Origin: Escherichia coli 042
Lineage (GTDB): Bacteria; Pseudomonadota; Gammaproteobacteria; Enterobacterales; Enterobacteriaceae
NCBI RefSeq assembly: GCF_000027125.1
Contig: NC_017626.1
Direction: 5' to 3' (one strand)
Length of the DNA stretch: 64,000 nt
Part shown: positions 6,431 through 21,868 of the stretch, one piece after another
How positions within the stretch are numbered: position 1 is the stretch's first letter
Layout: the number at the start of each line of letters is the position of its first letter
Program-made: the position numbers and the translations under genes
The notes under the pieces: model-generated
What the model was told of the DNA's origin: nothing
Database searches by the model: none
What the model saw: the letters and a program-made list of their open reading frames with translations, nothing else

Positions 6431-7252
6431 ATGCGTACAACCATTGCTGTAGTGTTGGGTGCAATTAGTTTGACGTCTGCTTTTGTGTTTGCAGATAAAC
6501 CAGACGTTGCCAAATCGGCAAACGATGAGGTCAGCACCCTGTTTTTTGGTCATGATGATCGTGTGCCAGTGAATGACACGACCCAATCACCGTGGGATGC
6601 GGTTGGCCAACTGGAAACGGCCAGCGGCAATTTATGTACGGCGACGCTGATTGCACCCAATCTGGCATTAACGGCAGGACACTGTTTATTGACGCCGCCA
6701 AAGGGTAAAGCCGATAAAGCGGTAGCGCTGCGTTTCGTGTCAAATAAAGGTCTTTGGCGCTATGAGATCCACGACATAGAAGGCCGCGTTGATCCGACAC
6801 TGGGAAAGCGGTTAAAAGCAGATGGGGATGGCTGGATTGTACCTCCCGCAGCTGCGCCCTGGGATTTCGGTTTGATTGTGCTACGTAATCCCCCTTCTGG
6901 CATTACACCGTTGCCGTTATTTGAGGGAGATAAAGCCGCGCTTACCGCCGCATTAAAAGAGGCAGGTCGTAAAGTGACTCAGGCGGGATACCCTGAAGAT
7001 CATCTCGATACGTTGTACAGTCATCAAAACTGTGAAGTGACTGGCTGGGCGCAAACGTCGGTGATGTCGCATCAGTGCGATACCTTGCCGGGTGACAGCG
7101 GTTCGCCTCTGATGTTGCATACCGATGACGGCTGGCAATTAATTGGGGTGCAAAGTTCGGCTCCTGCCGCGAAAGATCGCTGGCGCGCCGATAACCGGGC
7201 CATTTCTGTTACCGGTTTTCGCGACAGGCTGGATCAACTGTCGCAAAAATAA
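6431..7252 (+). CDS. ydgD: secreted trypsin-like serine protease
   Basis: 273 aa, signal peptide, TAGHC and GDSGSPL catalytic motifs. Confidence 0.88.
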
Positions 7253-7257
7253 TGTTC

Positions 7258-7283
7258 AAACGCTGCCCGACAGCGCGGGCAGC
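7258..7283. terminator. hairpin between convergent ydgD and mdtI (approximate coordinates)
   Basis: cgctgcccg-acag-cgggcagcg inverted repeat. Confidence 0.5.
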
Positions 7284-7290
7284 GTGTTCA

Positions 7291-7620
7291 TCAGGCAAGT
7301 TTCACCATGATCATTCCAGCCAACAGCAAGACCAGGCCAATCCAGCCTTTACGATTTAACCGTTGACCAAACAAGATCCAACCTGCGGCTAACGTGGCGG
7401 CAATACCAAACCCGCCCCACAATGCATAAGCGACAGACAAGTCGATCCCTTTAACGGCCTGAGAAAGCGCACTAAAGGCAGCCAGCACCGCCGACAGGGA
7501 GAGCAAGCCAAATATTTTGCGACGAAAGCCGTCAGAAAATTTCAAAAAGACGTTAGCAACGATTTCCAGCACGATTGCCAATGCCAGCCAGGCGGCGTGA
7601 ACCCATTCAAACTGCGCCAT
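7291..7620 (-). CDS. mdtI: SMR-family spermidine exporter subunit
   Basis: 109 aa small multidrug resistance fold; K-12 synteny. Confidence 0.9.
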
Positions 7621-7972
7621 GGTTCACCTCCAGTTCAGGTTTACGCGCTTTACGGGTACCTGATTTGATCAATACAATCCCGGCCACCAGGGTGGTTAAC
7701 CCGGCAATTTTCATCAGCGATAAACTTTCGTCGAATAACAAAACGCTAAACAAGGTAATAAATAAAATACCGATACCTTCCCACAGCGCATAAGCCACGC
7801 CTAAGGCGATTTTTTTAACGGCGAAAGAGAGAAATATATACGACAGAGAAATCATCACCAGCATTAAAATAAAGCCGCCATTTCCCTCACTGACGCTCGC
7901 CCATTTCATGGACAGCGTACCGGTAATTTCTGTAGCAATAGCCAGGCCTAATAAAATCCAATAAATATACAT
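7607..7972 (-). CDS. mdtJ: SMR-family spermidine exporter subunit
   Basis: 121 aa; overlaps mdtI start as in K-12. Confidence 0.9.
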
Positions 7973-8383
7973 TGTCCTTCTCCTGCAAGAGAATTATTTT
8001 AATTTTCGCTTAATTCAGCGAAACCAAAGTAAAGTGGTCAAGCCCCGCGCTTAGCGCAAGCTTTGGCAGAAGAAAGGACTAAAGCGCGTTGCGCCAGTGC
8101 TGCTCACCTACGAGCAAGATAGTGGATGAGGTACGAAGATGGGTAAATGTAGAAAATAACGTCCTGAACAAATTGTCCATAATATTACAATTATCCGCAG
8201 TGTTGCTTCTCGTCATCGCGGATGATAATTGTCCTCGGTAGTTGAACACGCCTGATTTGTATCATAGCTTAAGAATTAACTCAAAATATTTTCACTTCTT
8301 TACCTGAGCGGTTTGATTTTCGTTATGATGACGGAGCGAAAAAGACATTATTATTAGCAAAGGAAGAAAAAACGGGGACAAGC

Positions 8384-8530
8384 ATGGCAAAGCCGATCAT
8401 CACGCTCAATGGCCTAAAAATCGTCATTATGTTGGGAATGCTGGTCATTATTCTCTGCGGTATCCGTTTTGCCGCCGAGATCATCGTGCCGTTTATTCTC
8501 GCATTATTTATTGCTGTTATATATAACTAA
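8384..8530 (+). pseudogene. tqsA: tqsA 5' fragment (codons 1–45) ending at the island junction
   Basis: Encodes [45 protein letters not shown] then IYN-stop from island DNA; remainder of tqsA resumes at 19546. Confidence 0.8.
8512..8520. repeat. attL core (TGCTGTTAT)
   Basis: Identical 9-mer at 19546..19554; lies at tqsA codons 44–46. Confidence 0.7.
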
Positions 8531-8591
8531 TTTCACTTAACGCATTGATTTAATTAAATGATTTGCACTACAAAAAGTGCCATAAATCGCA

Positions 8592-8650
8592 AAATGACTA
8601 CACCAGTGACTACACCGTTCGGTGCACTGTATGAAACAACGTGGAACAAA
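8592..8650. promoter_or_regulatory. arm-type repeat block (GACTACACC x2), homologous to block near attR
   Basis: atGACTACACCagtGACTACACCg plus shared flanking motifs, matching 19391..19460. Confidence 0.5.
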
Positions 8651-8929
8651 TAGACACAAGAAATATACAGGCGGGTCATCTTTCCAGGGGGAAGCGCGCT
8701 AATTCATGAGGGGCGTTAATGTTGATATGGGGATCCCCATAACGGGGCTACCGGATTTTTTTTCCGGTTAACTGTTAATCAGGCTGGTGGGCTTTACCTG
8801 TTTTGTAGGAGTGGTCATTATGACCATTCAGACAATGACCTTAATCAGAACTTTTCGCTAAAAAATGACGTTGGTCACGTCGTCCGGAAAGCACAAAATC
8901 CCGTCAATTTTTAATTAACGGTTAAACCG

Positions 8930-8990
8930 TCTTTTGTCACGGCGTGTCACTGGTTGTCACTCTCCGTCACGGTATGTCGCTACTCGTTAA
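8930..8990. repeat. helically phased TGTCAC/GTCAC array (about 5 copies)
   Basis: tgtcacggcgtgtcactggttgtcactctccgtcacggtatgtcgc, ~10–11 bp spacing; at 3' end of the leftmost island gene. Confidence 0.45.
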
Positions 8991-9268
8991 CGCCGTAACC
9001 GCTCCGGCTTCTTCCAGTGGTACGTAATTTTCTCCGTTTCCCGATACAGTGCCACGCGGCGATTGTAGGCCAGCATTTCAAGAACGCGGATCCGTATGTT
9101 GCGCATATCCACATCATTAAGCTGGATACCATCACGGCGCATCACCTCAGCAACCACACGCGCGTAATTTTCGGCGGTCACGCTGTCCGGCTGCGTGGCC
9201 TGTTCGTCATGCTGCTGGCTGATTCCGGTAACGCGGCGGATTAATCCCAGTAGTTCGGCTTCTGTCAT
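8987..9268 (-). CDS. hypothetical protein (93 aa)
   Basis: ORF 8987..9466 trimmed to Met MTEAELLG; upstream part of the track ORF is read-through of the cos repeat. Confidence 0.45.
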   Translation of the reverse strand: MTEAELLGLIRRVTGISQQHDEQATQPDSVTAENYARVVAEVMRRDGIQLNDVDMRNIRIRVLEMLAYNRRVALYRETEKITYHWKKPERLRR

Positions 9269-9301
9269 TGTGCCCCCATCGCTCTGATAGTCTGGTGTCG
9301 T

Positions 9302-9365
9302 CGGGTCCTTCCTGGAATTATGGCCCGTTACGGGGCGGCGACCTCGCGCGTTTTCACTATTTATG
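9302..9365 (+). other. lambda-type cos site, copy A (cosN GGGCGGCGACCT at 9333..9344)
   Basis: cgggtccttcc...gttacg|GGGCGGCGACCT|cgcgcgttttcactatttatgaaaattttt matches remembered lambda cosQ–cosN–left-end sequence. Confidence 0.75.
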
Positions 9366-9547
9366 AAAATTTTTCGGGATCCATGTCCGGTTTCTCTGCA
9401 AGTTAACCATATGAAAAATATAAAAACATGCTTTCCATGAACCGGACATGCGCAAAAAACAGACACTAAAACCGGACATCGAACCAGTTAACCGAAAGTG
9501 TGCACAAATCACATGCATTGCTGCGAGTGATTAACAAGTTATCGGCT

Positions 9548-9982
9548 TTACTGTTCTGTATCGGCTGATTGCTCCATGCTGGCACGGCGAACGCTTATGG
9601 CATGACGCCACCCAGCCAGAAAGCCAGCCATTTTATTTCGTGCCTTGCTCACATCTTCCGGTGAATAGCCGTAAATCTGCAAACCTTCATCAAATCGATG
9701 TTCTGTTTCTTCACTGGAGTACTCGTCACGCTCAGATGAAAGCAGCCTGGCAAACATAATTTTTTCCAGCGCACTGGTTTCTACGTGATATCTGATGGTC
9801 TCAAGACGGCTTTTACCTGAAGACCAAAGCAATGTATGCCCGATGTGATAACCGCCAGACTTTCCGCGATCCGCATTAAGATACGGCATCCCCTGTTTGG
9901 TCCATGCGCGAATAGTGGTTCTGTTAACCTTGAAATGTTCAGCTATTTCCTGCTGACTTACAAAACAAGCTTTATCAATCAT
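9548..9982 (-). CDS. Nu1-like small terminase homolog (N-terminal HTH); possible packaging-redirecting protein
   Basis: 144 aa; VSQQEIAEHFKVNRTTIRAWTKQGMP resembles lambda Nu1 VNKKQLADIFGASIRTIQNWQEQGMP; flanked by cos copies. Confidence 0.7.
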   Translation of the reverse strand: MIDKACFVSQQEIAEHFKVNRTTIRAWTKQGMPYLNADRGKSGGYHIGHTLLWSSGKSRLETIRYHVETSALEKIMFARLLSSERDEYSSEETEHRFDEGLQIYGYSPEDVSKARNKMAGFLAGWRHAISVRRASMEQSADTEQ

Positions 9983-10050
9983 AATGTTACCTTAACTGCA
10001 TGGTTAAATATTAATCAAGTGGTGGTGGTGTCACCTTCACGGAAAAACGT

Positions 10051-10114
10051 CATAAATAGCGAAAACCCGCGAGGTCGCCGCCCCGTAACGGGCCATAATT
10101 CCAGGAAGGACCCG
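10051..10114 (-). other. lambda-type cos site, copy B (cosN at 10072..10083), inverted relative to copy A
   Basis: Reverse complement is cgggtccttcctggaattatggcccgttacgGGGCGGCGACCTcgcgggttttcgctatttatg; ~90 bp upstream of the Nu1-like start. Confidence 0.75.
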
Positions 10115-10117
10115 TAA

Positions 10118-10138
10118 AAAAGCCGGATTTCTCCGGCC
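10118..10138 (-). terminator. rho-independent terminator after the 137-aa gene
   Basis: Minus strand gccggagaaatccggc followed by T-run; same hairpin recurs near 12390 and 12759. Confidence 0.6.
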
Positions 10139-10143
10139 TTGTC

Positions 10144-10557
10144 TCAGATGTTTTTCAGTATGCGATCGATGTCGCCGTCATCGCCCTGGTTTCTGCCATC
10201 GTATGCCATGCCAGCTGATACGGCTTGCGGGCTGTGCATGTCCATAAAGTTTTCAAAGGCTGCGGTAAGTTCCGGCGCAACCTTCGGACGTTCCTGCTCT
10301 ATGGTCATGCTAAGGATGCTTTTAGCCGTACCAACATCGATACAAGGCACGTTTGCCATTGCACGCAACAGCGGCTGATAGTCTTTATGCTCATGAAGCG
10401 CCATAATCGCATCAGCGCGCGGCTTGTCCTGCTCTTCCAGTTTGTTTAGTTGATGTACGGCCTCATAGGTTGATAAACCTCTGTCAGCCATTGCCCGCGC
10501 TTCGACTTTAAATTTACTCGCCAGCGGTAGCGTCATGATGCTTTCATTCGTTGCCAT
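10144..10557 (-). CDS. hypothetical protein (137 aa), last gene of capsid operon
   Basis: ORF; tightly packed after the gpD-like gene. Confidence 0.5.
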   Translation of the reverse strand: MATNESIMTLPLASKFKVEARAMADRGLSTYEAVHQLNKLEEQDKPRADAIMALHEHKDYQPLLRAMANVPCIDVGTAKSILSMTIEQERPKVAPELTAAFENFMDMHSPQAVSAGMAYDGRNQGDDGDIDRILKNI

Positions 10558-10569
10558 CGTTCCCCCTGC

Positions 10570-10905
10570 TTATCGGGCCAGCGGCTGAACGGATACGCCG
10601 GAACCCGCAAAGGCGGCGCATTTTTTCGCATCGGTGTCGACGCTCTCAGGCCAGTTAACGGCGGCAATATTGAATATCCCCGTCTTGTAACACTGTGCTG
10701 ATTTCTGCTTTGACGTGTCCACAGGGTACGAGGTCAGATAAACAGCCTTGCCAGATTCCTGACCATCCCACGGCTTAAACTCGCCATTGTCTGCCAGCAT
10801 CAGCGGGGTAAATTCCTGAATAACGCCAGCATCAGCGGCAAAATGTACCAACGTCGTGGATACCTGCTGACTGCCTGCAAATAACTCAATGTATGGAGTG
10901 TCCAT
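10570..10905 (-). CDS. head decoration protein, lambda gpD-like
   Basis: 111 aa; TPLMLADNGEFKPWDG...KTGIFNIAAVNWPESVDTDAKKCAAFAGSGVSVQ parallels lambda gpD (110 aa). Confidence 0.72.
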   Translation of the reverse strand: MDTPYIELFAGSQQVSTTLVHFAADAGVIQEFTPLMLADNGEFKPWDGQESGKAVYLTSYPVDTSKQKSAQCYKTGIFNIAAVNWPESVDTDAKKCAAFAGSGVSVQPLAR

Positions 10906-10917
10906 AGAATCCCCCCG

Positions 10918-11973
10918 TTAACCAATTTTGACGGTAACAAATTTGCGAATATCTGCCGGTACCGGCTGCGGTGCACTGTGTGTCTGCACGTACTCAATCG
11001 CCGGATCGCCGTCCTCAATCCAGTTTTTCGGGTAAAACATGTTTTGTGTTGCGCCCGTTCTTACCGCTTCCTGATCCATTATCGCACCATAGGCCACCAG
11101 CCCTTTATTGTTGGTGTTACCCAGGACCAGCAAATCAGGCTCAAGGAAATATTTTTCGGTACCATCGCTGTCAGTGTATTTGCCGGAATAGACGATAAGG
11201 GCCAGATCACCAAGATAGCCTTTAAAGCTCACCACTTCGCCCAGGTTTTTACAGGCCAGTTCGGCGGCGGATTCTGAACCACGGGAAAGATCGTACAGCT
11301 CACGGAATTTTTTAAAGCTGCGTAATGTGCGCCATACCTCAGCGCCCATAATCATGACGTTTGCGGGGCAACCAGCCTGATCAGCATAAAGCTCGATGTC
11401 ATAGATTGGGTCGTGCATGTCTTTATCCTGCTCGGACCATTTTTTACCCTTGGCCTGCTCTATGATGCAGTTTTCCGGTATTTTCCAGTCGATTTCATAG
11501 CGTTCTATGCCTTCGCCCTCAATGATGTTTTTTCCGGTCGTTACCGCATTCACCGCCAGCCATTCCACGCGTGCCTTAATGGCGTTTATCTGGCGGCGCA
11601 TGTTGCCAGTAATCAGGCGCATACGGCGATAGGTAGGGTCGTTAAGCTGTGCCGGATCTTCTCCAGCCATGCGCATGATGGTTTTCGTTGGATCGATTTC
11701 GTGCTTTGGCTTCATGTAGCCAGGTTTGATTGTGCTGGTTTCGTACCCTTTATCGCGCTGAACCTGGCTACCCACCATAGGCGAACAAAACGCCGACATG
11801 GTGACTTCTTCAATGTCCAGGGTATCCAGCATGATGTTTTGCGTGCTGAATGTCGCCACGTTCGGGAAAAACAGCGTGGTAAACAGAGGGCTGAATTTAA
11901 AATCCGCAATATCCCCGCGATTCAGGTACATGAAAAGCTGGTTAGTGTTAAGTGCCGTTGCTTTGCCTGCCAT
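10918..11973 (-). CDS. major capsid protein, lambda gpE family
   Basis: 351 aa (lambda gpE is 341 aa); adjacent to gpD-like gene. Confidence 0.75.
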   Translation of the reverse strand: MAGKATALNTNQLFMYLNRGDIADFKFSPLFTTLFFPNVATFSTQNIMLDTLDIEEVTMSAFCSPMVGSQVQRDKGYETSTIKPGYMKPKHEIDPTKTIMRMAGEDPAQLNDPTYRRMRLITGNMRRQINAIKARVEWLAVNAVTTGKNIIEGEGIERYEIDWKIPENCIIEQAKGKKWSEQDKDMHDPIYDIELYADQAGCPANVMIMGAEVWRTLRSFKKFRELYDLSRGSESAAELACKNLGEVVSFKGYLGDLALIVYSGKYTDSDGTEKYFLEPDLLVLGNTNNKGLVAYGAIMDQEAVRTGATQNMFYPKNWIEDGDPAIEYVQTHSAPQPVPADIRKFVTVKIG

Positions 11974-12212
11974 TATTCACCCCCATAATTTTTATGCATC
12001 CCAAGCGCCGCAAGTAAATAAGAGCGTACAAGTGAACCTATCGACGGCTCCGGCGTCATCAGCGGATCCAGTCCAGCCGCAACGCCAGCTTCATAGTTTT
12101 TTTTGTGGCGCTGCTTGAGCACCTCCACGATTTCGGGGCTTATGTACACCGAAACACCGCCTTTTTTCTCTTCAGCCATAGTAAGAAATTCCTCTTCGAC
12201 TAAAAAAATCAT
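11973..12212 (-). CDS. hypothetical protein (79 aa, or 68 aa from internal Met), first gene of capsid operon
   Basis: ORF; stop overlaps capsid start (ATGA). Confidence 0.45.
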   Translation of the reverse strand: MIFLVEEEFLTMAEEKKGGVSVYISPEIVEVLKQRHKKNYEAGVAAGLDPLMTPEPSIGSLVRSYLLAALGMHKNYGGE

Positions 12213-12235
12213 AACTGGATGTTTATCCAGTTATG
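12208..12235. promoter_or_regulatory. 12-bp inverted repeat (tcataactggat-gttt-atccagttatga) overlapping capsid-operon start codon
   Basis: Perfect 12-bp arms with 4-bp spacer; AT-rich region with further palindrome ttgcattttatgcaa just upstream. Confidence 0.5.
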
Positions 12236-12344
12236 ATTATAATCAGAATTGCATTTTATGCAATGATATTGAGTTATGTTGCAAATTATGAAATGATTAT
12301 CCCGATCACGAACGCCAGTGCATCCAAAAACCTCATATGCAAAA

Positions 12345-12410
12345 GCCCGATAAGAACCCTCTGACCTTATCGGGCTTTTTTTGGGCGCAAAAAAGCCGGA
12401 TTGCTCCGGC
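12345..12410. terminator. tandem hairpins (bidirectional terminator region, approximate)
   Basis: gcccgataag...cttatcgggc + T7, then aaaaaagccggattgctccggc. Confidence 0.55.
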
Positions 12411-12430
12411 TATGTGTGCTGTGTGCTGGC

Positions 12431-12655
12431 TCAGTCTCTGATCTCTTTCAGAAATTCTATCAATGCATCTATCTGTTCAGGATTTACCGCCAGCATTTCA
12501 CCGGATAGAGCACATCTCACAAAACCATGCTGATCCTTTTCAATCAGTGCGCCCGTCTCCAGGAATGCGCGGTAATCATTGATGCTCATCGTCTCCATGT
12601 TGTCAGCATGGTATTTATCACGCTGTTTTAATATCTCATCAAATTTCATCGGCAT
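12431..12655 (-). CDS. hypothetical protein (74 aa)
   Basis: ORF followed by terminator hairpin. Confidence 0.45.
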   Translation of the reverse strand: MPMKFDEILKQRDKYHADNMETMSINDYRAFLETGALIEKDQHGFVRCALSGEMLAVNPEQIDALIEFLKEIRD

Positions 12656-12758
12656 TGTTTTTTTCCTCTGTTGTGTCTGTTTGTTTCAGATAGTAACTAT
12701 GCCTGACCGTGACGAAAACCCGGTAATGCGCCATACCGTTTCAACTGGTGCAAAAAAA

Positions 12759-12774
12759 GCCGGATTTCTCCGGC
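12759..12774 (-). terminator. rho-independent terminator after PerC-like gene
   Basis: aaaaaaagccggatttctccggc. Confidence 0.6.
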
Positions 12775-12781
12775 TGTTTGA

Positions 12782-13054
12782 TTAGCTGTCCTGGTAATTG
12801 CGCCATATTTCATCACCAGCACCATCTATACCCATTTCGGCATAAGTGCGATCGACTGCCTTTTTCAGGTCTCCGAAATTATCCGGCGGCTCCGGTGCCC
12901 TCTGTGCCTTCCTTGAACATTCCAGCCGTCGCATCGTGATGTGATGCCGTTCCTTGTCTGTCTCCACCAGCTGCATGACTTCACCCCATCGCGCCGCCGC
13001 CCTCCGGTAAAAGCCTTTCGCCTCCAGTTCCTCCGCTATGCGGTCATGTACCAT
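12782..13054 (-). CDS. PerC-family transcriptional regulator-like protein
   Basis: ORF 12782..13174 trimmed to Met MVHDRIAEELEAKGFYRRAAARWGEVM, which resembles the PerC/Pch motif LExxGxWRRAAxRW. Confidence 0.55.
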   Translation of the reverse strand: MVHDRIAEELEAKGFYRRAAARWGEVMQLVETDKERHHITMRRLECSRKAQRAPEPPDNFGDLKKAVDRTYAEMGIDGAGDEIWRNYQDS

Positions 13055-13064
13055 CGTCACCCCC

Positions 13065-13475
13065 TCAGAACGAAATATCATCACCGTAAGGGTCATCGCC
13101 TCCCGCTGGTGGCTGATTACCCTGTGTGCCTGTGGTTTTGCGTCTGTTCCCGCCTGGACGTGCCGCGCGGGCACTGATTACGCTGTCTGCGATAACCTGC
13201 CAGCCCTGCCGCGTTTCTCCGTTCTGTCCGGTCCACTGGCTTACCTGCATCGTGCCGGATACGCTGGCAACATCGCCTTTTTGATGTTTAGCCAGGAAGT
13301 CGGCCTGTTTGCCAAATGCGATGACCGATAACCATAACGTCGCCTGTCCGTCCTGTGCCTGGCTGCATGGCAAAGATACCGCCATACGCGCCAGCGTCAT
13401 CGGTGTGCCCTTGCTGGTCTGTTTTACCTGCGGGTCGTCCACCAGCCGCCCGTAAGCGGCTATCTGTGCCGTCAT
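13065..13475 (-). CDS. ssb: single-stranded DNA-binding protein
   Basis: 136 aa; OB-fold segments parallel E. coli SSB; Gly/Pro-rich tail ending DDPYGDDISF (compare DFDDDIPF). Confidence 0.8.
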   Translation of the reverse strand: MTAQIAAYGRLVDDPQVKQTSKGTPMTLARMAVSLPCSQAQDGQATLWLSVIAFGKQADFLAKHQKGDVASVSGTMQVSQWTGQNGETRQGWQVIADSVISARAARPGGNRRKTTGTQGNQPPAGGDDPYGDDISF

Positions 13476-13753
13476 AATTCCACCTCTCCGGTTTTAACGT
13501 TGATGGTTGTTACCTGTTCCGCTTCGGCAATCTCCCGTTCTGTCAGCGTGGCAAAGTTTGCCGCCGCCGTGGTCATGAATGCGCTTATCAGGTCGGGATG
13601 TTCCTTCGCGTATCCTTCCCGCGTGTGGCGGTCTATCGTTCTGATTGCCACCTTTAAGGTGTGCTCAGTCATGTCTAACGCTTTATATTTTGGCTCTGTT
13701 CTGTCTCTGCGTTTTTGGGTCATTTCTCGCAACCTCTCACTTTTTCGCCTCAC
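13472..13753 (-). CDS. hypothetical protein (93 aa)
   Basis: ORF overlapping ssb start by 4 nt; 5' end overlaps iteron region. Confidence 0.4.
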   Translation of the reverse strand: MRRKSERLREMTQKRRDRTEPKYKALDMTEHTLKVAIRTIDRHTREGYAKEHPDLISAFMTTAAANFATLTEREIAEAEQVTTINVKTGEVEL

Positions 13754-13925
13754 TTTTTCAAGCGTCTCACTTCGTCGCAGTTGGGATTTTCGGTTTTTCT
13801 ATGTGTGTGTTTCATAAGTATTTTTTTACCCCTCACTTTTGAGGATGTATACAGGTCGAAAAGTGAGGGAGAGCGGGCTAATTTTGGCCCTCTTTCTATC
13901 CCCCTCGCTTTTGCTCCTCACTTTT
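13733..13925. repeat. candidate replication origin: CCTCACTTTT iterons (about 6 direct, 1 inverted) with AT-rich spacer
   Basis: Iterons at about 13733, 13748, 13764, 13829, 13859 (inverted), 13901, 13916; directly 3' of the replication ATPase gene. Confidence 0.6.
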
Positions 13926-15324
13926 ATAGCGGCGCTACATCATCCCCATCGATACGAATAACCCCATCTTTTTCCAGCTTGTACAGCCAGCGCCGGAAGT
14001 TTTTCATTTCATACCCCAGCTTTTTCATGTCATCACGTAACAGCGGGATCGTGCACTTGTCGCCGTTCTGTGTGCGTGAACGGATGCACCCCCATAGCGC
14101 GGTATGGTTTTCCGTCTTGTTCCCTGCCTCCTCGATGCGCTCCAGTTCAACAGGAGGGCGCGGATCATCCACCACCACCAGCGACGTGATTAATTCACCG
14201 TCAGCGTCGGTAAAAAGCTCCACCACGCGTAAGTCATATGCGGCTTCTTTGAGTTCCTCCGCGTCCTTCATTTTGGTGCATGAGATAACCAGCGCTTCGC
14301 TTCCTGCGTCCTCCCTGCGTATCCGGTATTCAGCATCCAGCGAAGCACGAAATGCACTGGAACCGCGCGCGCCTTTCGTCTCATCCTTGCCGGAATGGTG
14401 AACCACCAGCACCGTGGCCCCTGTGCGTCGTTTCAGTTCGTCACAACCACGGATAAACGCCCCCATATCACGGGAATCATTTTCATCATTCCCACCAAAG
14501 CAACGCGCCAGCGTATCCAGAATAATCATGCGTACAGGTTTACCCGTTTCCCGCTCCACCTGACGGGCAGCGATAACCATTTCATCAACATCAAGCGGGG
14601 CAGCCGGAAAGATGGGGCGGTTTACCAGATACAGATTTTTCACCTGCTCATCGTGCACAACCTCCCAGGCTTTTACACGACGCGGAACACCTATACCGCC
14701 TTCACCAACCACATAGAGAACCGCACCATGTGCAACCCTGCGGCCTCCCCACTGGCGACCAGTGGCAACATGGCACGCCCACGATCCAGCAAGGAATGAT
14801 TTATAGGACCCGCTAGCCCCGTATATGCTGCATAGCGATACCGCCGGAATAATCCCCTTAACCACGTAATCCAGTTGCGTGTCGTATCCGGTAGATCCAA
14901 CGCTCATCGGTAGCGTGGTTTTTCGCTGGTGTTTTTTTTCTTCCGCCGGCTCTTTCCCGCGCACCCGTTCCAGGTATTCGCGCCAGTTCTCCCGCATATG
15001 GCTGTGCATCCCTTCGGGGTAATAATTCGCATCAGTTACACCCGCCGCCGCCAGCTTGTGCGCAATGGCATTAATATTTGATGGCCTGATGTGGCCTGCC
15101 TTGTACAGCCGGACACAATAGCGCCCCTCGTCGATGATTCTCAGGTCTGCCAGTTCATCCAGTTGATCATCAGCCAGCACAACGGGAGGCACATTATCGC
15201 CAGCCAGTCGCCCGTCCTGTTCCTGCCACTGTTTCGCATGTGCCCAGGCATCACTACCCGCAAAAATAATGACTTCGGTCATCTTGTCGTAAGGCTGTTT
15301 TTTTAAGTTCGGTGCGCTTTTCAT
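13924..15324 (-). CDS. replication protein, RecA-fold ATPase / helicase-like (primase-replicase candidate)
   Basis: 466 aa; Walker A GASGSYKS, Walker B MIILDTLARCFGG, VLVVHHSGK motif typical of phage/plasmid RepA or DnaB-like ATPases. Confidence 0.75.
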   Translation of the reverse strand: MKSAPNLKKQPYDKMTEVIIFAGSDAWAHAKQWQEQDGRLAGDNVPPVVLADDQLDELADLRIIDEGRYCVRLYKAGHIRPSNINAIAHKLAAAGVTDANYYPEGMHSHMRENWREYLERVRGKEPAEEKKHQRKTTLPMSVGSTGYDTQLDYVVKGIIPAVSLCSIYGASGSYKSFLAGSWACHVATGRQWGGRRVAHGAVLYVVGEGGIGVPRRVKAWEVVHDEQVKNLYLVNRPIFPAAPLDVDEMVIAARQVERETGKPVRMIILDTLARCFGGNDENDSRDMGAFIRGCDELKRRTGATVLVVHHSGKDETKGARGSSAFRASLDAEYRIRREDAGSEALVISCTKMKDAEELKEAAYDLRVVELFTDADGELITSLVVVDDPRPPVELERIEEAGNKTENHTALWGCIRSRTQNGDKCTIPLLRDDMKKLGYEMKNFRRWLYKLEKDGVIRIDGDDVAPL

Positions 15325-15620
15325 TTCTTGCCCCTGAATCCGTTAACCATGGTTTTCAGCTTCTGGATGTTTGCCCGTGCCCTGGCGTTGCTGGTGGGCA
15401 CGTTATGCGGCGCGGTCTGTACCAGAGAAAAATCACGCCGGAACTGATAAACAGGCATCACGCAATCATATTCGTAACCTTCACGGCGGTAGGTTACGCG
15501 CCGTTCTTCCACGTCCTTAATCATTACCGTGCCGCCGTACTGGTCGCGGTAAATATCACCGCGCGTAAATTTAGGGTGAGTGTTGCCACTGGCAGTTAAG
15601 CCAGAATATTTAAGTTTCAT
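15321..15620 (-). CDS. hypothetical protein (99 aa)
   Basis: ORF overlapping rep start by 4 nt. Confidence 0.45.
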   Translation of the reverse strand: MKLKYSGLTASGNTHPKFTRGDIYRDQYGGTVMIKDVEERRVTYRREGYEYDCVMPVYQFRRDFSLVQTAPHNVPTSNARARANIQKLKTMVNGFRGKK

Positions 15621-15625
15621 TATTT

Positions 15626-15859
15626 TTATTCTCCGGTGTGCTGTTCTTTATATCTGTCGTGCAATAGATCTATTTCTTGCAGTTCCATTATTACAGGCTC
15701 AAGAAGCGTTATTAATGCTGTGGCAATTCTTGATTTTTGTTTGTCGCGTTCATTGTCGCCAAGTGTTTCAAGCCATATGCGCAATATTTCCATCATGTTT
15801 TCACTGTGAGAAAGTGCAAGAAATGCGCGGTCTATTGTTTGGTGGTAAATATCACGCAT
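15626..15859 (-). CDS. hypothetical protein (77 aa)
   Basis: ORF in operon context. Confidence 0.4.
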   Translation of the reverse strand: MRDIYHQTIDRAFLALSHSENMMEILRIWLETLGDNERDKQKSRIATALITLLEPVIMELQEIDLLHDRYKEQHTGE

Positions 15860-16319
15860 GGCTTACATCCTCAGGAAATTTTCTTCTATAACGCGCCTCT
15901 GCCACATATTCCGCATAATCGGCGGCGATATTCAGTACATCAAGCCCCGTTGATTTATATTCTCTCGTGGAAAGTAAGAAAAAAGCCGCTCTAATAAGTT
16001 CTGGCATTGACGAAAGCGCATCAGCCGCATCATCAGGAACGCCGGAAAATTCCTGTTTCAGGGAATTAAAACGATCATCACGCATAACCCCCCCCCCATT
16101 TTCACAATCAGCAATCAGGATAGCTTTGGCCTCATTCAGCGCCGTATCAGCACTAAATTGCATGACAGCCAGTGAGTGAGGAACGAAAGCACCGGCATAT
16201 TCTGTTTCGCTGGTGGCGTGCTTATGTGCCCTGTCCGCGATAACAGAAATATCAATCAGCGCGTGCATCAGCGTTTTGATGGCTTCGGCGGCTGCGTCCG
16301 GTGTGGTTTTATTGTGCAT
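15852..16319 (-). CDS. hypothetical protein (155 aa) containing a G10 homopolymer
   Basis: ORF; codons GGG-GGG-GGG at 16088..16097. Confidence 0.45.
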   Translation of the reverse strand: MHNKTTPDAAAEAIKTLMHALIDISVIADRAHKHATSETEYAGAFVPHSLAVMQFSADTALNEAKAILIADCENGGGVMRDDRFNSLKQEFSGVPDDAADALSSMPELIRAAFFLLSTREYKSTGLDVLNIAADYAEYVAEARYRRKFPEDVSHA

Positions 16320-16521
16320 AAAGCATCCCCTGAATATTCGTGTTAATCATTCCGGCACGTTTTGTGATTTCCTGTAATGATTCCCTTGTGGCGACAATTG
16401 CTTCATCTGGTAAGTGGTAATTACACACCACGCGACCTTTATCCACATTGACCAGTAGCTGCCCTGTGAATTTCTCACGAAACTGAATGCGGTTAAGGTC
16501 AGTAAGTGACAGATTAATCAT
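16309..16521 (-). CDS. hypothetical protein (about 70 aa from internal Met MINLSL)
   Basis: ORF 16309..16563 starts at GTG; ATG at 16521 is the likelier start. Confidence 0.4.
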   Translation of the reverse strand: MINLSLTDLNRIQFREKFTGQLLVNVDKGRVVCNYHLPDEAIVATRESLQEITKRAGMINTNIQGMLYAQ

Positions 16522-16711
16522 GGCGCACCTCCTGACGAATACGGGCGGCAAATACAGCAACACAACCGGACGGGCAACGGTTACGCGCTTCGCGTTCCGT
16601 CCAGGCGGTTACGTGGATGATTTGAGATTCTCCGGCACTCAGTGCCAGAAAACGCCACACAAAGGCCGTTTGTGTGTGTACAAGGTGTGGTATATGATTT
16701 ACAGCAACCAT
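16514..16711 (-). CDS. hypothetical small protein (about 65 aa), first gene leftward of regulatory region
   Basis: ORF 16514..16786 trimmed to Met MVAVNH. Confidence 0.3.
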   Translation of the reverse strand: MVAVNHIPHLVHTQTAFVWRFLALSAGESQIIHVTAWTEREARNRCPSGCVAVFAARIRQEVRHD

Positions 16712-16803
16712 AACGGCTCCTAGTTTACGTTGTTGGTTAGAAGCCCTGCGAGTGGTAACGACACTTGCGGGGCTTTGTCTTTTCATCGATTACCTTGATA
16801 AAG

Positions 16804-16884
16804 GTGTCAGCCACTATATTAGTAACGGGTGTCAGCCACGTCAATAGTGTTTTTCCGTTTTCTTGTGTGTATACTGTCAGCCAC
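16804..16884. promoter_or_regulatory. divergent regulatory region with three direct repeats GTCAGCCAC
   Basis: Repeats at 16806..16814, 16831..16839, 16876..16884; tatact box and aggaaa RBS precede the plus-strand small gene. Confidence 0.6.
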
Positions 16885-16905
16885 CTAATAACGAGGAAAT
16901 CAGAT

Positions 16906-17085
16906 ATGGCAACAAAAGCAGTTAATGCAAAATCCAAAAAGCTTGAGGCTCGAGTACCACACGCAATAGCTGATGCTGTAGAAAATTTAAAGGAAGATGG
17001 CGAAAGTACAGGGCAATTTATCGTTTCGGCACTTGAAGGCGAGATCAAACGCCGCCAGCGCCGCAAGGCCAAAGAATCAGAATAA
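16906..17085 (+). CDS. small ribbon-helix-helix-like DNA-binding protein (59 aa), candidate island regulator
   Basis: KKLEARVPHAIADAVENLKEDGESTGQFIVSALEGEI resembles Arc/CopG RHH; transcribed divergently from the leftward gene block. Confidence 0.5.
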   Translation: MATKAVNAKSKKLEARVPHAIADAVENLKEDGESTGQFIVSALEGEIKRRQRRKAKESE

Positions 17086-17127
17086 TCACTATCAGCGCCG
17101 TGGTGTGAGGTATTACGGCGCATTGCT

Positions 17128-17316
17128 ATGCAGGACAACACAATGACCGATAAAGAATTGACCAAAACATTATCACCGGCACGGAAAAGACGGCGCAGAA
17201 AGATAGAGCATGAATCAGAAAGATTCGCACCATGTGCTTTTGCCCTTGAGCAATTCCTTAAAGAGTACAGGGAAAAGCGCTCATTGCAGGTATGGCAACG
17301 AACTGAACCAGACTGA
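17128..17316 (+). CDS. hypothetical basic small protein (62 aa)
   Basis: ORF downstream of RHH gene; Arg/Lys-rich. Confidence 0.35.
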   Translation: MQDNTMTDKELTKTLSPARKRRRRKIEHESERFAPCAFALEQFLKEYREKRSLQVWQRTEPD

Positions 17317-17394
17317 TTGCATTGCCCACCAGCCTGATAGCGGCTATCATCCCCGTGCTTATGTTTGGGATCACACACACAAACGGCGCAGCGG

Positions 17395-17430
17395 GTTATC
17401 TGTTCAGAAAGGCGGCTCCATTTCGGGGCC
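17395..17430 (+). terminator. candidate terminator of the plus-strand pair (approximate)
   Basis: ggcggctccatttcggggccgc followed by tttttta. Confidence 0.45.
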
Positions 17431-17585
17431 GCTTTTTTTATACCTGAAAAACCCCAATTTTGTTGTTTTTCAGTTTCACCAGGGCGAACGAATCCCCGCC
17501 CACGTTCTGGCGTATATTCAATCTTCATGGTTATAGCTCTGTGTTCAGATGATTGATGTGTGGCGGCTGCGTGCCGCCAGCGTGA

Positions 17586-17774
17586 TTAATGAACTGCCTT
17601 GCAGCTATCCTTCCAGGCCAGAACCTCGGATAAAGACCAGCCAACGGAACGACCGCCAAGTTTACGACGTGATGGGAATTGTCCGGCCTTTTCCAGGCGG
17701 TAGCGACACGTACGGCTAAGGCCGGTTAGTTTTTCGCATTCTTTTTCACGTATAAACCGATCAGTGCTTAACAC
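17586..17774 (-). CDS. alpA: AlpA-family phage transcriptional regulator / excisionase-like
   Basis: 62 aa; LTGLSRTCRYRLEKAGQFPSRRKLGGRSVGWSLSEVLAW matches AlpA HTH pattern. Confidence 0.8.
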   Translation of the reverse strand: MLSTDRFIREKECEKLTGLSRTCRYRLEKAGQFPSRRKLGGRSVGWSLSEVLAWKDSCKAVH

Positions 17775-18140
17775 TATTGCCCCCCCTTTCGTTTCTTAAA
17801 GAGTCATCAGGTGTCTTATTGTGTCGTATTGTTCCCGCTAGAGTGATGAATGGCAAATATTGAGGATGTATGATTTACAGAAAATGAAACAGTAAGAATA
17901 AAATCTTTTAAATTCATGTTAATACAAAGGCATAAAATATTGTTTCATGCCTTTTTTCTCGCTCTTTAAAGAGTGATTCGCTAGTGTATAAAAAACCAGT
18001 GACACATTAAAAATCAGCCACTTATAAATCTGTATGCTTTTTCGCCTCTTGTTCGTGGTTGTTCCACATTGTTGCTCATTGTTGCACGTTGTATCTGTTC
18101 GCATATACAGTATGCGCATACTGAAAAAACACGAAAAAAA

Positions 18141-19370
18141 TTATTTTCTTCTGGCTACTGGTAGCGTGGTTACGTTTTCATGTGTTCCCGCCAGTATCCC
18201 TAACCGCTCCGTCCACATATCCAGCGCATTGCGTTTAGCATCCAGATAACGGGAATGATTATAAACTCGCTGCATTCCTGGCATCTGGTGGCCTGTAAGC
18301 TGCTCCACGACATGCGGATCAACGCCTAAATCGTTCAGCATGGTTGTAAAGGTGCGCCGGATGTCATGCAGTGACCAGTGAGGATGATTAAGCCTCCTGT
18401 GCGCTAATCTTCCATACTGCGATACGCTGGCCTCCTGTTTCACTTCCCCCAGCAATAAGCCCGTGTGCCTGTTCTGCTCCACCAGCTGCGTGACGAACGG
18501 CAGGATCGCTTCCGGTATGGGCCGGAATATTGCGACCTTCGTTTTGCTGTGCTCCTTCGGAACGGTCCATAGCATTTCCGTAAAATCCCACTCCCCGATC
18601 TCCGATAACCTCAGTTCTACCGTTCTGGCTCCGAAGACAATCAGGAGGCGGATTAACGCGACGTAGTAAGGGGAGAATATTTTTTTGTCCAGTGCCTGCA
18701 ATAATTCGCCAAGTTCTTTGTTACTTAAGACACGTTCGCTTATATCCGGTTTTTTCCCAACGTCCGCCACGTTCAGATCGTCCAGAACGTTGCTGATTGC
18801 ATAGCGCCGCCTACGGCAGAACTTAAGCGCCTGTTTGCACGCCTGTAGCACGAATCCGGCAGTAACAGGCGTTCGCTTTGCCACCTGGTCAAAACAGGCC
18901 AGCCAGTGCCGTAGCTCGCATTTATCCAGCGGCATAGCACCAATCTGCTGTATTACGTGATTATTAAGTCGCCTTTTCAGGGCGATATAATCCACGCGGT
19001 TTTCCTTTACGTAATACTCAAGCCAGTAGGTGAGCGCATCGCCAACCGTTACCGGCTTTAACGCTTCCTGTACGGTGTAATTAAGCTCATGACGTGGATT
19101 TTTCCCCTCTGCCAGCCATGCGCGACACTGGGCGGCTTTTTCCCTGGCTGATTTCAGGCTCAGATCAGGATAACTTCCCAGCTTAATGCGTTCGGGTCGT
19201 GTCTCCCTTCCCGTTCCGGCCCTGTATGTGAAATACCAGGTCAATTTCCCTGATGTTAAATATTTCACGCTCAGGTTTCCGCCATCACTATAAAACGTGT
19301 TTTTCTCCGCTGGCTTACCATGAAGTTTCCTTAGCAAGGTATCGCTCAGTTTGTTCATTGCTCTGCTCAC
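18141..19370 (-). CDS. int: tyrosine site-specific integrase (P4-like, N-terminal arm-binding domain)
   Basis: 409 aa; C-terminal HDIRRT...GHQ...VYNHSRY catalytic motifs; adjacent to attR. Confidence 0.9.
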   Translation of the reverse strand: MSRAMNKLSDTLLRKLHGKPAEKNTFYSDGGNLSVKYLTSGKLTWYFTYRAGTGRETRPERIKLGSYPDLSLKSAREKAAQCRAWLAEGKNPRHELNYTVQEALKPVTVGDALTYWLEYYVKENRVDYIALKRRLNNHVIQQIGAMPLDKCELRHWLACFDQVAKRTPVTAGFVLQACKQALKFCRRRRYAISNVLDDLNVADVGKKPDISERVLSNKELGELLQALDKKIFSPYYVALIRLLIVFGARTVELRLSEIGEWDFTEMLWTVPKEHSKTKVAIFRPIPEAILPFVTQLVEQNRHTGLLLGEVKQEASVSQYGRLAHRRLNHPHWSLHDIRRTFTTMLNDLGVDPHVVEQLTGHQMPGMQRVYNHSRYLDAKRNALDMWTERLGILAGTHENVTTLPVARRK

Positions 19371-19390
19371 GTTTTACCCCCTCTTTACGA

Positions 19391-19460
19391 AAAAGTGACT
19401 ACACCAGTGACTACACCGATCGTTGCACAAAGGGCTACAACGTGAAACAAGCTGGAACAA
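19391..19460. promoter_or_regulatory. arm-type repeat block (GACTACACC x2) between int start and attR
   Basis: gtGACTACACCagtGACTACACCg at 19397..19417, homologous to 8592..8650. Confidence 0.5.
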
Positions 19461-19545
19461 GGAAAATCACAAATCTGTTGATAATCAAAAACATAATGCA
19501 CAGCCTGAAACATTATGAAACAGCAAAAAACACCAAATGATAAAA

Positions 19546-19554
19546 TGCTGTTAT
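19546..19554. repeat. attR core (TGCTGTTAT)
   Basis: Identical to 8512..8520; in-frame stops TGA TAA immediately upstream. Confidence 0.7.
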
Positions 19555-20452
19555 TCTTAACCCGCTGGTGCAACACATGGTCCGCTGGCGAGTGCCGCGT
19601 GTACTGGCGGTGTCGATTTTGATGACCATCATCGTGATGGCGATGGTGTTGCTGTTAGCTTATCTGGGTTCCGCGCTCAACGAGTTGACGCGGACGTTAC
19701 CGCAATATCGCAACTCTATTATGACGCCGCTGCAAGCGATTGAACCGTTGTTGCAACGCGTAGGGATTGATGTCTCAGTTGACCAACTGGCGCATTACAT
19801 TGATCCGAACGCGGCGATGACGTTGCTCACCAACTTATTGACGCAGTTATCTAATGCCATGTCATCAATATTTTTATTGCTGCTGACGGTGCTGTTTATG
19901 CTGCTCGAAGTGCCACAATTGCCCGGAAAATTTCAGCAAATGATGGCGCGTCCGGTTGAAGGGATGGCGGCGATTCAGCGTGCGATTGACAGTGTTTCTC
20001 ATTATCTGGTGCTGAAAACAGCCATCAGCATCATCACCGGCCTGGTCGCCTGGGCGATGCTCGCCGCACTCGATGTTCGCTTCGCTTTTGTCTGGGGATT
20101 GCTGGCCTTTGCGCTTAATTACATCCCTAATATTGGTTCAGTTCTCGCAGCAATTCCCCCTATCGCTCAGGTACTGGTGTTTAATGGCTTCTACGAAGCG
20201 TTGTTGGTGCTGGCGGGATATCTGCTGATTAATCTGGTCTTCGGCAATATTCTGGAGCCGCGCATCATGGGACGTGGGCTGGGGCTTTCGACATTGGTGG
20301 TATTTTTGTCGTTGATTTTTTGGGGATGGTTGTTAGGACCGGTGGGTATGCTGCTTTCCGTGCCGTTGACAATTATTGTCAAAATTGCGCTTGAACAAAC
20401 AGCGGGAGGTCAAAGCATCGCCGTTCTGTTAAGCGATCTCAATAAAGAGTGA
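19546..20452 (+). pseudogene. tqsA: tqsA 3' portion (codons 44–344), separated from its start and promoter by the island
   Basis: In-frame continuation [14 protein letters not shown]...; track ORF 19568..20452 begins at an internal GTG. Confidence 0.8.
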
Positions 20453-20476
20453 CGGCCTCCGCAGAGGCCGTCAGGG

Positions 20477-21868
<1,392 letters not shown>

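Follow-up and report, generated by a model that had tools for sequence, protein, structure and literature searches.

The closest described relatives of the locus considered here are the EcCICFT073-type phage-inducible chromosomal islands (PICIs) of Escherichia coli. In E. coli PICIs, the origin of replication lies 3′ of pri-rep and always consists of two iteron sets around an AT-rich region, and EcCICFT073's pri-rep-ori has been found to drive plasmid replication (Fillol-Salom et al. 2018, ISME J, PMC6092414). EcCICFT073 itself carries pri-rep followed by the origin, homologs of a capsid protein (c1499) and a decoration protein (c1500), and two cos sites; a 136-aa ssb gene (c1497) is tabulated for this prototype, as it is for many other E. 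coli PICIs and cfPICIs (PMC6092414, Table S1). PICIs and cfPICIs have their left parts in common, and their replicase trees are intermingled (De Sousa and Rocha, PMC10085698), which agrees with the module swaps described below.

Three further systems serve as points of comparison for the replication proteins. In RSF1010, helicase and initiator are separate proteins: RepA is a bare 279-aa helicase that relies on a separate RepC initiator and on the RepB′ primase. The P4 alpha protein combines a primase, a helicase and a C-terminal origin-binding domain in one polypeptide; its primase is active and its helicase belongs to a class different from that of the island protein. The SaPIs, for their part, differ from our island in possessing a separate primase gene and a Gram-positive host, and we know of no SSB that forms part of the SaPI module.

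The present analysis concerns a 64-kb stretch of DNA, hereafter termed the window, in which an island of ~11 kb (~8.5-19.6 kb) is inserted in tqsA, beside pntBA, such that tqsA is cut into a 5′ fragment and a remainder. No tRNA gene was detected by a tRNA scan; the attachment site of the island is therefore not a tRNA. Every assigned island gene lies on the minus strand. From the tyrosine integrase at one island end (18141-19370), the order runs through a small HTH regulator, an icd-like gene, several small ORFs, DUF4222 and the 466-aa Rep to a gap filled with repeats, and then continues with an 83-aa ORF, the SSB, a PerC-family regulator, a lambda-E-like major capsid protein, a head decoration protein and a TerS-like protein. 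The PHROG matches in the island are confined to integrase, replication, regulators, capsid, decoration and TerS-like functions, with no tail or lysis genes among them; no recombinase gene was seen in the island, and Rfam gave no match in the whole 64-kb window. Two exact lambda-type cosN sites, GGGCGGCGACCT (query sequence taken from Fig. S5 of PMC6092414), are located at 9333 (+) and 10072 (-).

The size of the island fits the ~10-15 kb of PICIs, and we regard it as very probable that the island belongs to the EcCICFT073 family, i.e. that it is a phage satellite using lambdoid cos helper phages, and that the region at 13.7-15.3 kb is its replicon (Table 1). An initial annotation made from the window's sequence had read this region as a phage-satellite replication module, a reading borne out by the PICI gene plan, the integrase, the cosN sites and the origin layout described in PMC6092414. 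In common with EcCICFT073-type PICIs, the island has int, an alpA-type regulator, a replicase and a 3′ origin whose AT-rich stretch lies between two iteron sets, as well as the 136-aa ssb, perC, lambda-like capsid and decoration genes, a TerS-like gene and two cos sites; its insertion in tqsA sets it apart from EcCICFT073. PICIs of this sort are often annotated as defective prophages. For annotation, the region would be named a PICI rather than a defective prophage, the 466-aa ‘RepA helicase’ an initiator-helicase, and the gap 3′ of rep an origin.

Table 1. Features of the island replicon and its immediate neighbours (positions in the window)
Feature	Position	Strand or orientation	Remarks
ssb, 136 aa	13065..13475	minus	TIGR00621; phrog_44, E 1e-39; acidic tip DDPYGDDISF
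83-aa ORF between ori and ssb	13472..13723	minus	phrog_1231; stop overlaps ssb start
ori	13724..13926	.	direct iterons at 13735, 13748 and 13765; AT-rich 13784-13830; inverted pair 13831+/13859-; degenerate copy ~13888; direct iterons at 13903 and 13916
iteron TCTCACTTTT	13735	+
iteron CCTCACTTTT	13748	+
iteron TCTCACTTCG	13765	+
iteron CCTCACTTTT	13831	+
iteron CCTCACTTTT	13859	minus
iteron CCTCGCTTTT	13903	+
iteron CCTCACTTTT	13916	+	2-nt overlap with the rep stop codon (13924-13926)
rep, 466-aa initiator-helicase	13924..15324	minus	ATG start; NCBI name ‘helicase RepA family protein’; phrog_2850
Rep C-terminal winged-helix domain, aa 396-466	13927..14139	minus	third helix aa 443-452
Rep N442 codon	13999-14001	minus	residue tracking the iteron sequence
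Rep RecA-like helicase core, aa 148-385	14170..14883	minus
Rep N-terminal domain, aa 1-123	14956..15324	minus	four-stranded alpha/beta; weak Toprim-like fold similarity, lacking the catalytic motif
DUF4222 gene, 99 aa	15321..15620	minus	phrog_285; stop overlaps rep start by 4 nt

The replicon is not new in itself. PICIs in O157:H7, O55:H7 and O145:H28 strains carry the 2.7-kb rep-ori-ssb stretch at 99.9-100% identity, and it was matched in 1,790 of 5,426 complete E. coli genomes. One carrier is the island of O145:H28 RM13514 (1462244-1473465). These PICIs were catalogued in 2018 (PMC6092414), with the O145:H28 and O55:H7 islands, that of RM13514 included, in Table S1. The module is thus the standard replication unit of an already catalogued satellite family, and its recovery here changes little. 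For the window island as a whole, the best match to a complete E. coli genome reached no more than 89% coverage at 92.7% identity. A DNA search of a phage collection with positions 13000-15700 gave no match, which indicates that the module is no fragment of a sequenced phage.

Residues 148-315 of Rep match Pfam AAA_25 with an E value of 5.2e-43, and a profile built from 65 Rep relatives had a sole match in the PDB, RSF1010 RepA (1g8y; E 4.7e-11), whose fold is found in the Rep core. The Walker A, Walker B and His motifs are conserved: at G169, K175, D270, H309, H310 and R320, conservation among the 65 relatives is 90% or higher. These results support assignment of the core as a RecA-fold replicative helicase of the RSF1010 RepA/AAA_25 family, and the initial annotation was right in calling the protein a RecA-fold replication ATPase. 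In contrast to RSF1010 RepA, Rep possesses two further domains, an alpha/beta domain at the N-terminus and, at the C-terminus, a winged helix, in which N442 sits just before the third helix as assigned by DSSP. With P4 alpha, an origin-recognition protein of another enterobacterial phage satellite (named in PMC6092414), Rep has in common the placement of a helicase and a C-terminal origin-recognition domain on one polypeptide, but it lacks the zinc ribbon and the Toprim catalytic residues.

A primase fold had been suggested as something to look for in the N-terminus of the ATPase. In the predicted structure, residues 17-123 adopt a four-stranded alpha/beta fold. Pfam detected no Toprim family in the Rep N-terminus at E values up to 10, and hhalign comparison of the domain with the Zn-ribbon/Toprim N-termini of longer relatives returned a probability of 0.2%; a structure search revealed only weak Toprim-like similarity. 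The family consensus of the domain reads IIFAGSDAW and RLYKAG, with Ala and Tyr/Lys at the presumed places of the Toprim Glu and DxD (equivalence judged by eye), and residues 1-135 contain a single Cys, so a zinc ribbon is absent. With the Pfam and profile-profile comparisons negative and the fold similarity weak, we reject the primase reading, seeing no evidence for such an activity, and consider the domain to be at best a degenerate Toprim-like fold devoid of catalytic residues. A match of Rep to phrog_864 (‘DNA primase’) was also seen; it most likely reflects an N-domain common to proteins that are called primases for their other domains. The island encodes no other primase gene, and its description as ‘self-contained’ accordingly holds only in part.

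Two other PICI replicases begin with the same N-terminal domain: the EcCICFT073-type Pri-Rep of 584 aa, where 122 residues align at 62% identity, and a 711-aa DUF927 protein (82% identity). For the tested EcCICFT073 replicase, c1495, these 122 N-terminal residues are all that it has in common with Rep, and the tested replicon has another helicase engine and GGTAGAYA iterons, unlike the RepA-type replicon of the window. A 710-aa replicase, of the size class of the DUF927 protein as judged by length alone, is present in the O157:H7 Sakai cfPICI ‘Sp7’. The Sakai island at phoQ-roxA was considered as a carrier of the present Rep and rejected, being this cfPICI with its 710-aa replicase; the published replication of the Sakai island is consequently no test of the RepA-type replicon.

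The island SSB is a genuine member of its family, scoring 57.3 bits against NCBIfam TIGR00621 (cut-off 53.95) and matching solved SSBs in the PDB down to an E value of 6e-11. Its identity to the E. coli host SSB is only 26%, and to any phage SSB of the collection, where it has no close homolog, at most 35%; it is abundant in Escherichia and Shigella. Its C-terminal tip, DDPYGDDISF in the window and DDPYGDNIPF in relatives, is conserved as D[DN]I[SP]F. The host SSB ends in DDDIPF, which the island tip resembles in being acidic and in ending with a hydrophobic residue and Phe. The initial annotation had the origin followed by an island-encoded SSB and considered it unusual for a small satellite. 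The protein is indeed an SSB, its gene lying outside the 13733-15324 interval given for the module, with the 83-aa ORF between it and the origin. That it is unusual is not supported: an SSB goes with each of the three replicase types in the EcCICFT073 family, and c1497 of EcCICFT073 and its counterparts in many PICIs and cfPICIs are on record (PMC6092414, Table S1).

Among the readings that compete with ours, the one that survives best holds that this SSB is not mainly an island replication factor and instead acts on or against the helper phage, or in recombination, as the initial annotation had suggested. Its separate lineage would be in keeping with such a role, as would its dispensability: ssb is absent from two relatives (L006 and L008) and a pseudogene in a third (L004). 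Additionally, no ssb was found within 3 kb of the Rep homologs at any of 73 loci in other genera, a result on which we also reject the notion of SSB as a general companion of the Rep helicase family. Against this, ssb always comes directly after the origin and is co-oriented with it, whichever type of replicase the island has, and no recombinase gene accompanies it in the island. We judge a function chiefly outside island replication to be improbable.

The origin assignment starts from the 200-bp gap between the rep stop and the start of the next gene (13723), in which the initial annotation had noted seven iterons, one inverted, and an AT-rich spacer directly 3′ of the 466-aa gene. All seven 10-mer copies were recovered. 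The exact 10-mer occurs four times in the 64-kb window, counting both strands, and all four copies fall within 13748-13925, against ~0.1 expected per window. The degenerate form YCTCRCTTYK picks out the seven sites of the gap and none elsewhere in the 64-kb window on either strand; as this pattern was defined post hoc from the sites themselves, the exact count is the cleaner statistic. A degenerate eighth copy, at ~13888, is replaced by a good copy at the same place in relatives. The spacer is 70% AT, with a peak of 77%, vs 50% for the window. The arrangement is that of PICIs, with a replicase gene followed by an origin in which two iteron sets surround an AT-rich region, and it also resembles that of SaPIs in Staphylococcus aureus (in part after PMC6092414), where an initiator with helicase activity is likewise combined with a 3′ origin of two iteron sets around an AT-rich region. 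SaPI Rep-ori pairs are specific, and so, to judge from the covariation described below, would be the pair in the window island. Single-strand folding of the origin was no more stable than that of shuffled sequences (z -0.87), which points to no special hairpin origin. DnaA boxes beside the iterons are typical of many plasmid iteron origins, and are not required for PICIs; no box of the form TTATNCACA was present within 13724-13926 at up to one mismatch.

Evidence that the repeats belong to Rep comes from their variation. Eight E. coli variants keep the same layout of direct copies, AT-rich stretch, an inverted pair around GTATACAGGT, and direct copies abutting the stop codon, and within each variant all iteron copies change in concert. 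Four variants combine a CTCAC core with Asn at Rep residue 442; in the other four, the core is CCCAC and the residue is His. A scan of one genome per species extended the comparison to 73 loci in Xenorhabdus, Serratia, Pectobacterium, Erwinia, Kosakonia, Morganella and others. An 8-mer present at least three times within 315 bp past the rep stop was found in 51 of 64 usable loci, and CAC[TC]T sites averaged 5.8 per 340 bp 3′ of rep vs 1.2 elsewhere; the xCAC[TC]T pattern was chosen after inspection of the data, and is in agreement with the de novo counts of 8-mers. Loci with three or more copies, including the eight sequences from E. coli, of which the window is one, were scored for the base 5′ of CAC, while 16 of 71 loci with fewer than three copies were left unscored. 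At all 55 scorable loci the base matched the residue at the position of N442, the pairs being Asn with T (22/22), His with C (8/8), Lys with C (19/19), Ser with G (5/5) and Gly with G (1/1), figures that count loci and not independent events.

A further line of evidence is a comparison of the window with the island of locus L002. The two are 100% identical in DNA from 14061 to 15620 and 98-100% identical at 13523-13702, whereas identity drops to 55-92% at 13703-14060, a divergent block that coincides exactly with the winged helix plus the origin. This pattern implies that Rep's DNA-binding end moves together with the repeats as one unit, a ~360-bp ‘winged helix + ori’ cassette that, to judge from these alignments, is swapped between otherwise identical islands. 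The covariation at residue 442 and the cassette swap together support the view that the repeats are cognate iterons of Rep, paired with its winged helix, as the initial annotation had supposed in assigning them to the adjacent ATPase. Residue 442 may set the base 5′ of the iteron CAC, with Asn specifying T, His or Lys specifying C, and Ser or Gly specifying G; in the modelled structure it would be placed to contact DNA.

The gap could instead be read as regulatory DNA, its repeats acting mainly as operator or promoter elements for the ssb-perC-capsid genes and serving as binding sites for an autoregulatory Rep or for some other regulator of the island. The repeats do sit between genes, immediately upstream of the 83-aa ORF and ssb, and the iterons of many plasmids also serve regulation. 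Yet the minus strand within 13724-13923 showed no sigma-70-like promoter (a combined promoter and terminator scan gave counts at chance level), the layout equals that of the tested PICI origin design, with two iteron sets, an AT-rich stretch and a position 3′ of rep, and covariation with the repeats is limited to the Rep C-terminus while the flanking genes do not covary. A mainly regulatory role is, on these grounds, highly unlikely.

Equally hard to sustain is a division of labour after the manner of RSF1010, in which Rep would be a helicase only and DUF4222 or the 83-aa ORF would supply the iteron-binding initiator, like RepC. Both are constant neighbours of the replicase, which lends the idea some appeal, but both genes remain 98-100% identical in two islands whose iterons differ (the window and L002), while the winged helix of Rep diverges with the iterons. 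Moreover, the same DUF4222 and small ORF stand beside replicases with the quite different GGTAGAYA iterons, and Rep has a winged helix of its own. We have thus rejected either gene as the reader of the iterons and give a separate initiator very little credence. That the module might be a decaying, non-functional remnant, as the frequent labelling of such islands as defective prophages and the ssb pseudogene of one relative could suggest, is scarcely credible given that all ORFs are intact and the catalytic motifs conserved, that many O157:H7 and O145:H28 genomes match the 500 bp surrounding the origin at 100% identity, and that the iterons co-evolve with Rep.

With the components identified and the winged helix and repeats matched to one another, a course of events for replication can be proposed. 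Induction of the island by a helper would lead to expression of the leftward operon, yielding DUF4222, Rep and, downstream, SSB. The C-terminal winged helix of Rep would then read the CTCACTTTT iterons that flank the AT-rich stretch; the pairing is taken from covariation, and physical binding is presumed. By analogy of fold with RSF1010 RepA, and with the tested PICI and SaPI replicons in mind, the RecA core would form a ring, melt the AT-rich stretch and unwind the DNA. As the island has no primase, priming and synthesis would be left to host DnaG and Pol III. The island SSB would coat the unwound strands, and its host-like acidic tip would probably recruit host SSB-interacting proteins.

The exchangeable DNA-binding cassette is set in surroundings that change little. 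The order DUF4222, replicase, origin, small ORF, ssb and perC is kept with all three replicase types, and all E. coli loci inspected have an annotated DUF4222 gene upstream of the replicase, again with any of the three. DUF4222, the Rep N-domain and the SSB stand out as constant parts of the module; DUF4222, an N-domain that may be a catalytically dead Toprim-like fold and a satellite-specific SSB with a host-like tip may form a frame that recruits host priming and replisome machinery. Tentatively, we suggest that the recognition rule and the cassette swap, and the constant frame of DUF4222, N-domain and SSB around three unrelated helicase engines, could be features not described so far. If cassette exchange does occur, it would provide co-resident PICIs and cfPICIs with replicons that do not cross-react, and the pairing results might be of use in studying how several satellites coexist in one cell. 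A handle of one residue and one base for orthogonal replicons might likewise be applied in the engineering of PICI delivery vehicles. The Rep family comprises 32,545 cluster representatives at E <= 0.001, among which the unit of helicase and C-terminus is joined to varied N-termini, including Zn-ribbon plus Toprim primases.

The island is, on comparison of its segments with those of related islands, a mosaic. It splits the AI-2 transporter gene tqsA (pieces at 8384-8530 and 19568-20452), such that the 5' fragment lies on one side and the rest of the gene on the other, and in other E. coli strains this site holds sister islands with a different replicase. The rep-ori-ssb segment is 99.9% identical to that of islands of O145:H28 and O55:H7, which occupy the phoQ-roxA site. 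Among 5,426 complete E. coli genomes, the whole island (queried as window 7000-21000) was recovered in none (0/5,426), and the best match reached 89% coverage at 92.7% identity.

Some features of the replication module (Table) extend beyond this Rep type. The N-terminal domain of Rep, of about 123 residues, also begins the 584-aa Pri-Rep of the EcCICFT073 type at another E. coli locus (L082, 7666-9420) and heads the 711-aa DUF927 replicase P0049, a database protein. The helicase engines of these two replicases are unrelated to that of Rep and their iterons are different, and the occurrence of a common N-terminal domain on such otherwise dissimilar proteins suggests that the domain may serve a constant partner-binding role. 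The 710-aa replicase of the O157:H7 Sakai cfPICI (L084, 4601-6733), which occupies the same gene frame, is grouped with P0049 by size class. Each of the three PICI replicase types (RepA-type, 584-aa Pri-Rep and 710-aa DUF927 type) is preceded by a DUF4222 gene; a homologue of this gene was detectable in only 2 of the 73 Rep-homologue loci of other genera.

Downstream of rep, an 83-aa ORF begins some 11 nt away from the first iteron and ends in a stop that overlaps the start of ssb. This ORF is kept across the E. coli islands and was not found near Rep homologues in other genera. At two E. coli loci with the same Rep (L006 and L008), the adjoining ssb is lacking or has other small genes in its place, and at a third (L004) it is a pseudogene, so SSB is not essential to every copy of the Rep replicon.

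Features of the window in and around the replication module
Feature	Position	Strand	Remarks
cosN, lambda-type, exact	9333-9344	+	GGGCGGCGACCT
TerS-like gene	9548-9982		
cosN, lambda-type, exact	10072-10083	-	GGGCGGCGACCT
PerC-family regulator gene	12782-13054	-	directly after ssb
83-aa ORF, phrog_1231	13472-13723	-	ori/ssb interval
Rep N-terminal domain, ~123 residues	14956-15324	-	
DUF4222 gene	15321-15620	-	4-nt overlap with rep start
263-aa ORF	16737-17528	-	no PHROG match
106-aa ORF	16765-17085	+	overlaps 263-aa minus-strand ORF

Elsewhere in the island, the TerS-like gene is bracketed by the two cosN sites, which are mutually inverted, a pair resembling cos1 and cos2 of EcCICFT073. PICI-encoded PerC homologues have been reported to affect LEE expression, and the O157:H7 Sakai counterpart of the island's PerC-family gene is annotated as PchE. 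In sister islands, the position of the overlapping 263-aa and 106-aa ORFs is taken by genes of the YlcI/YnfO family or by an icd-like pseudogene.
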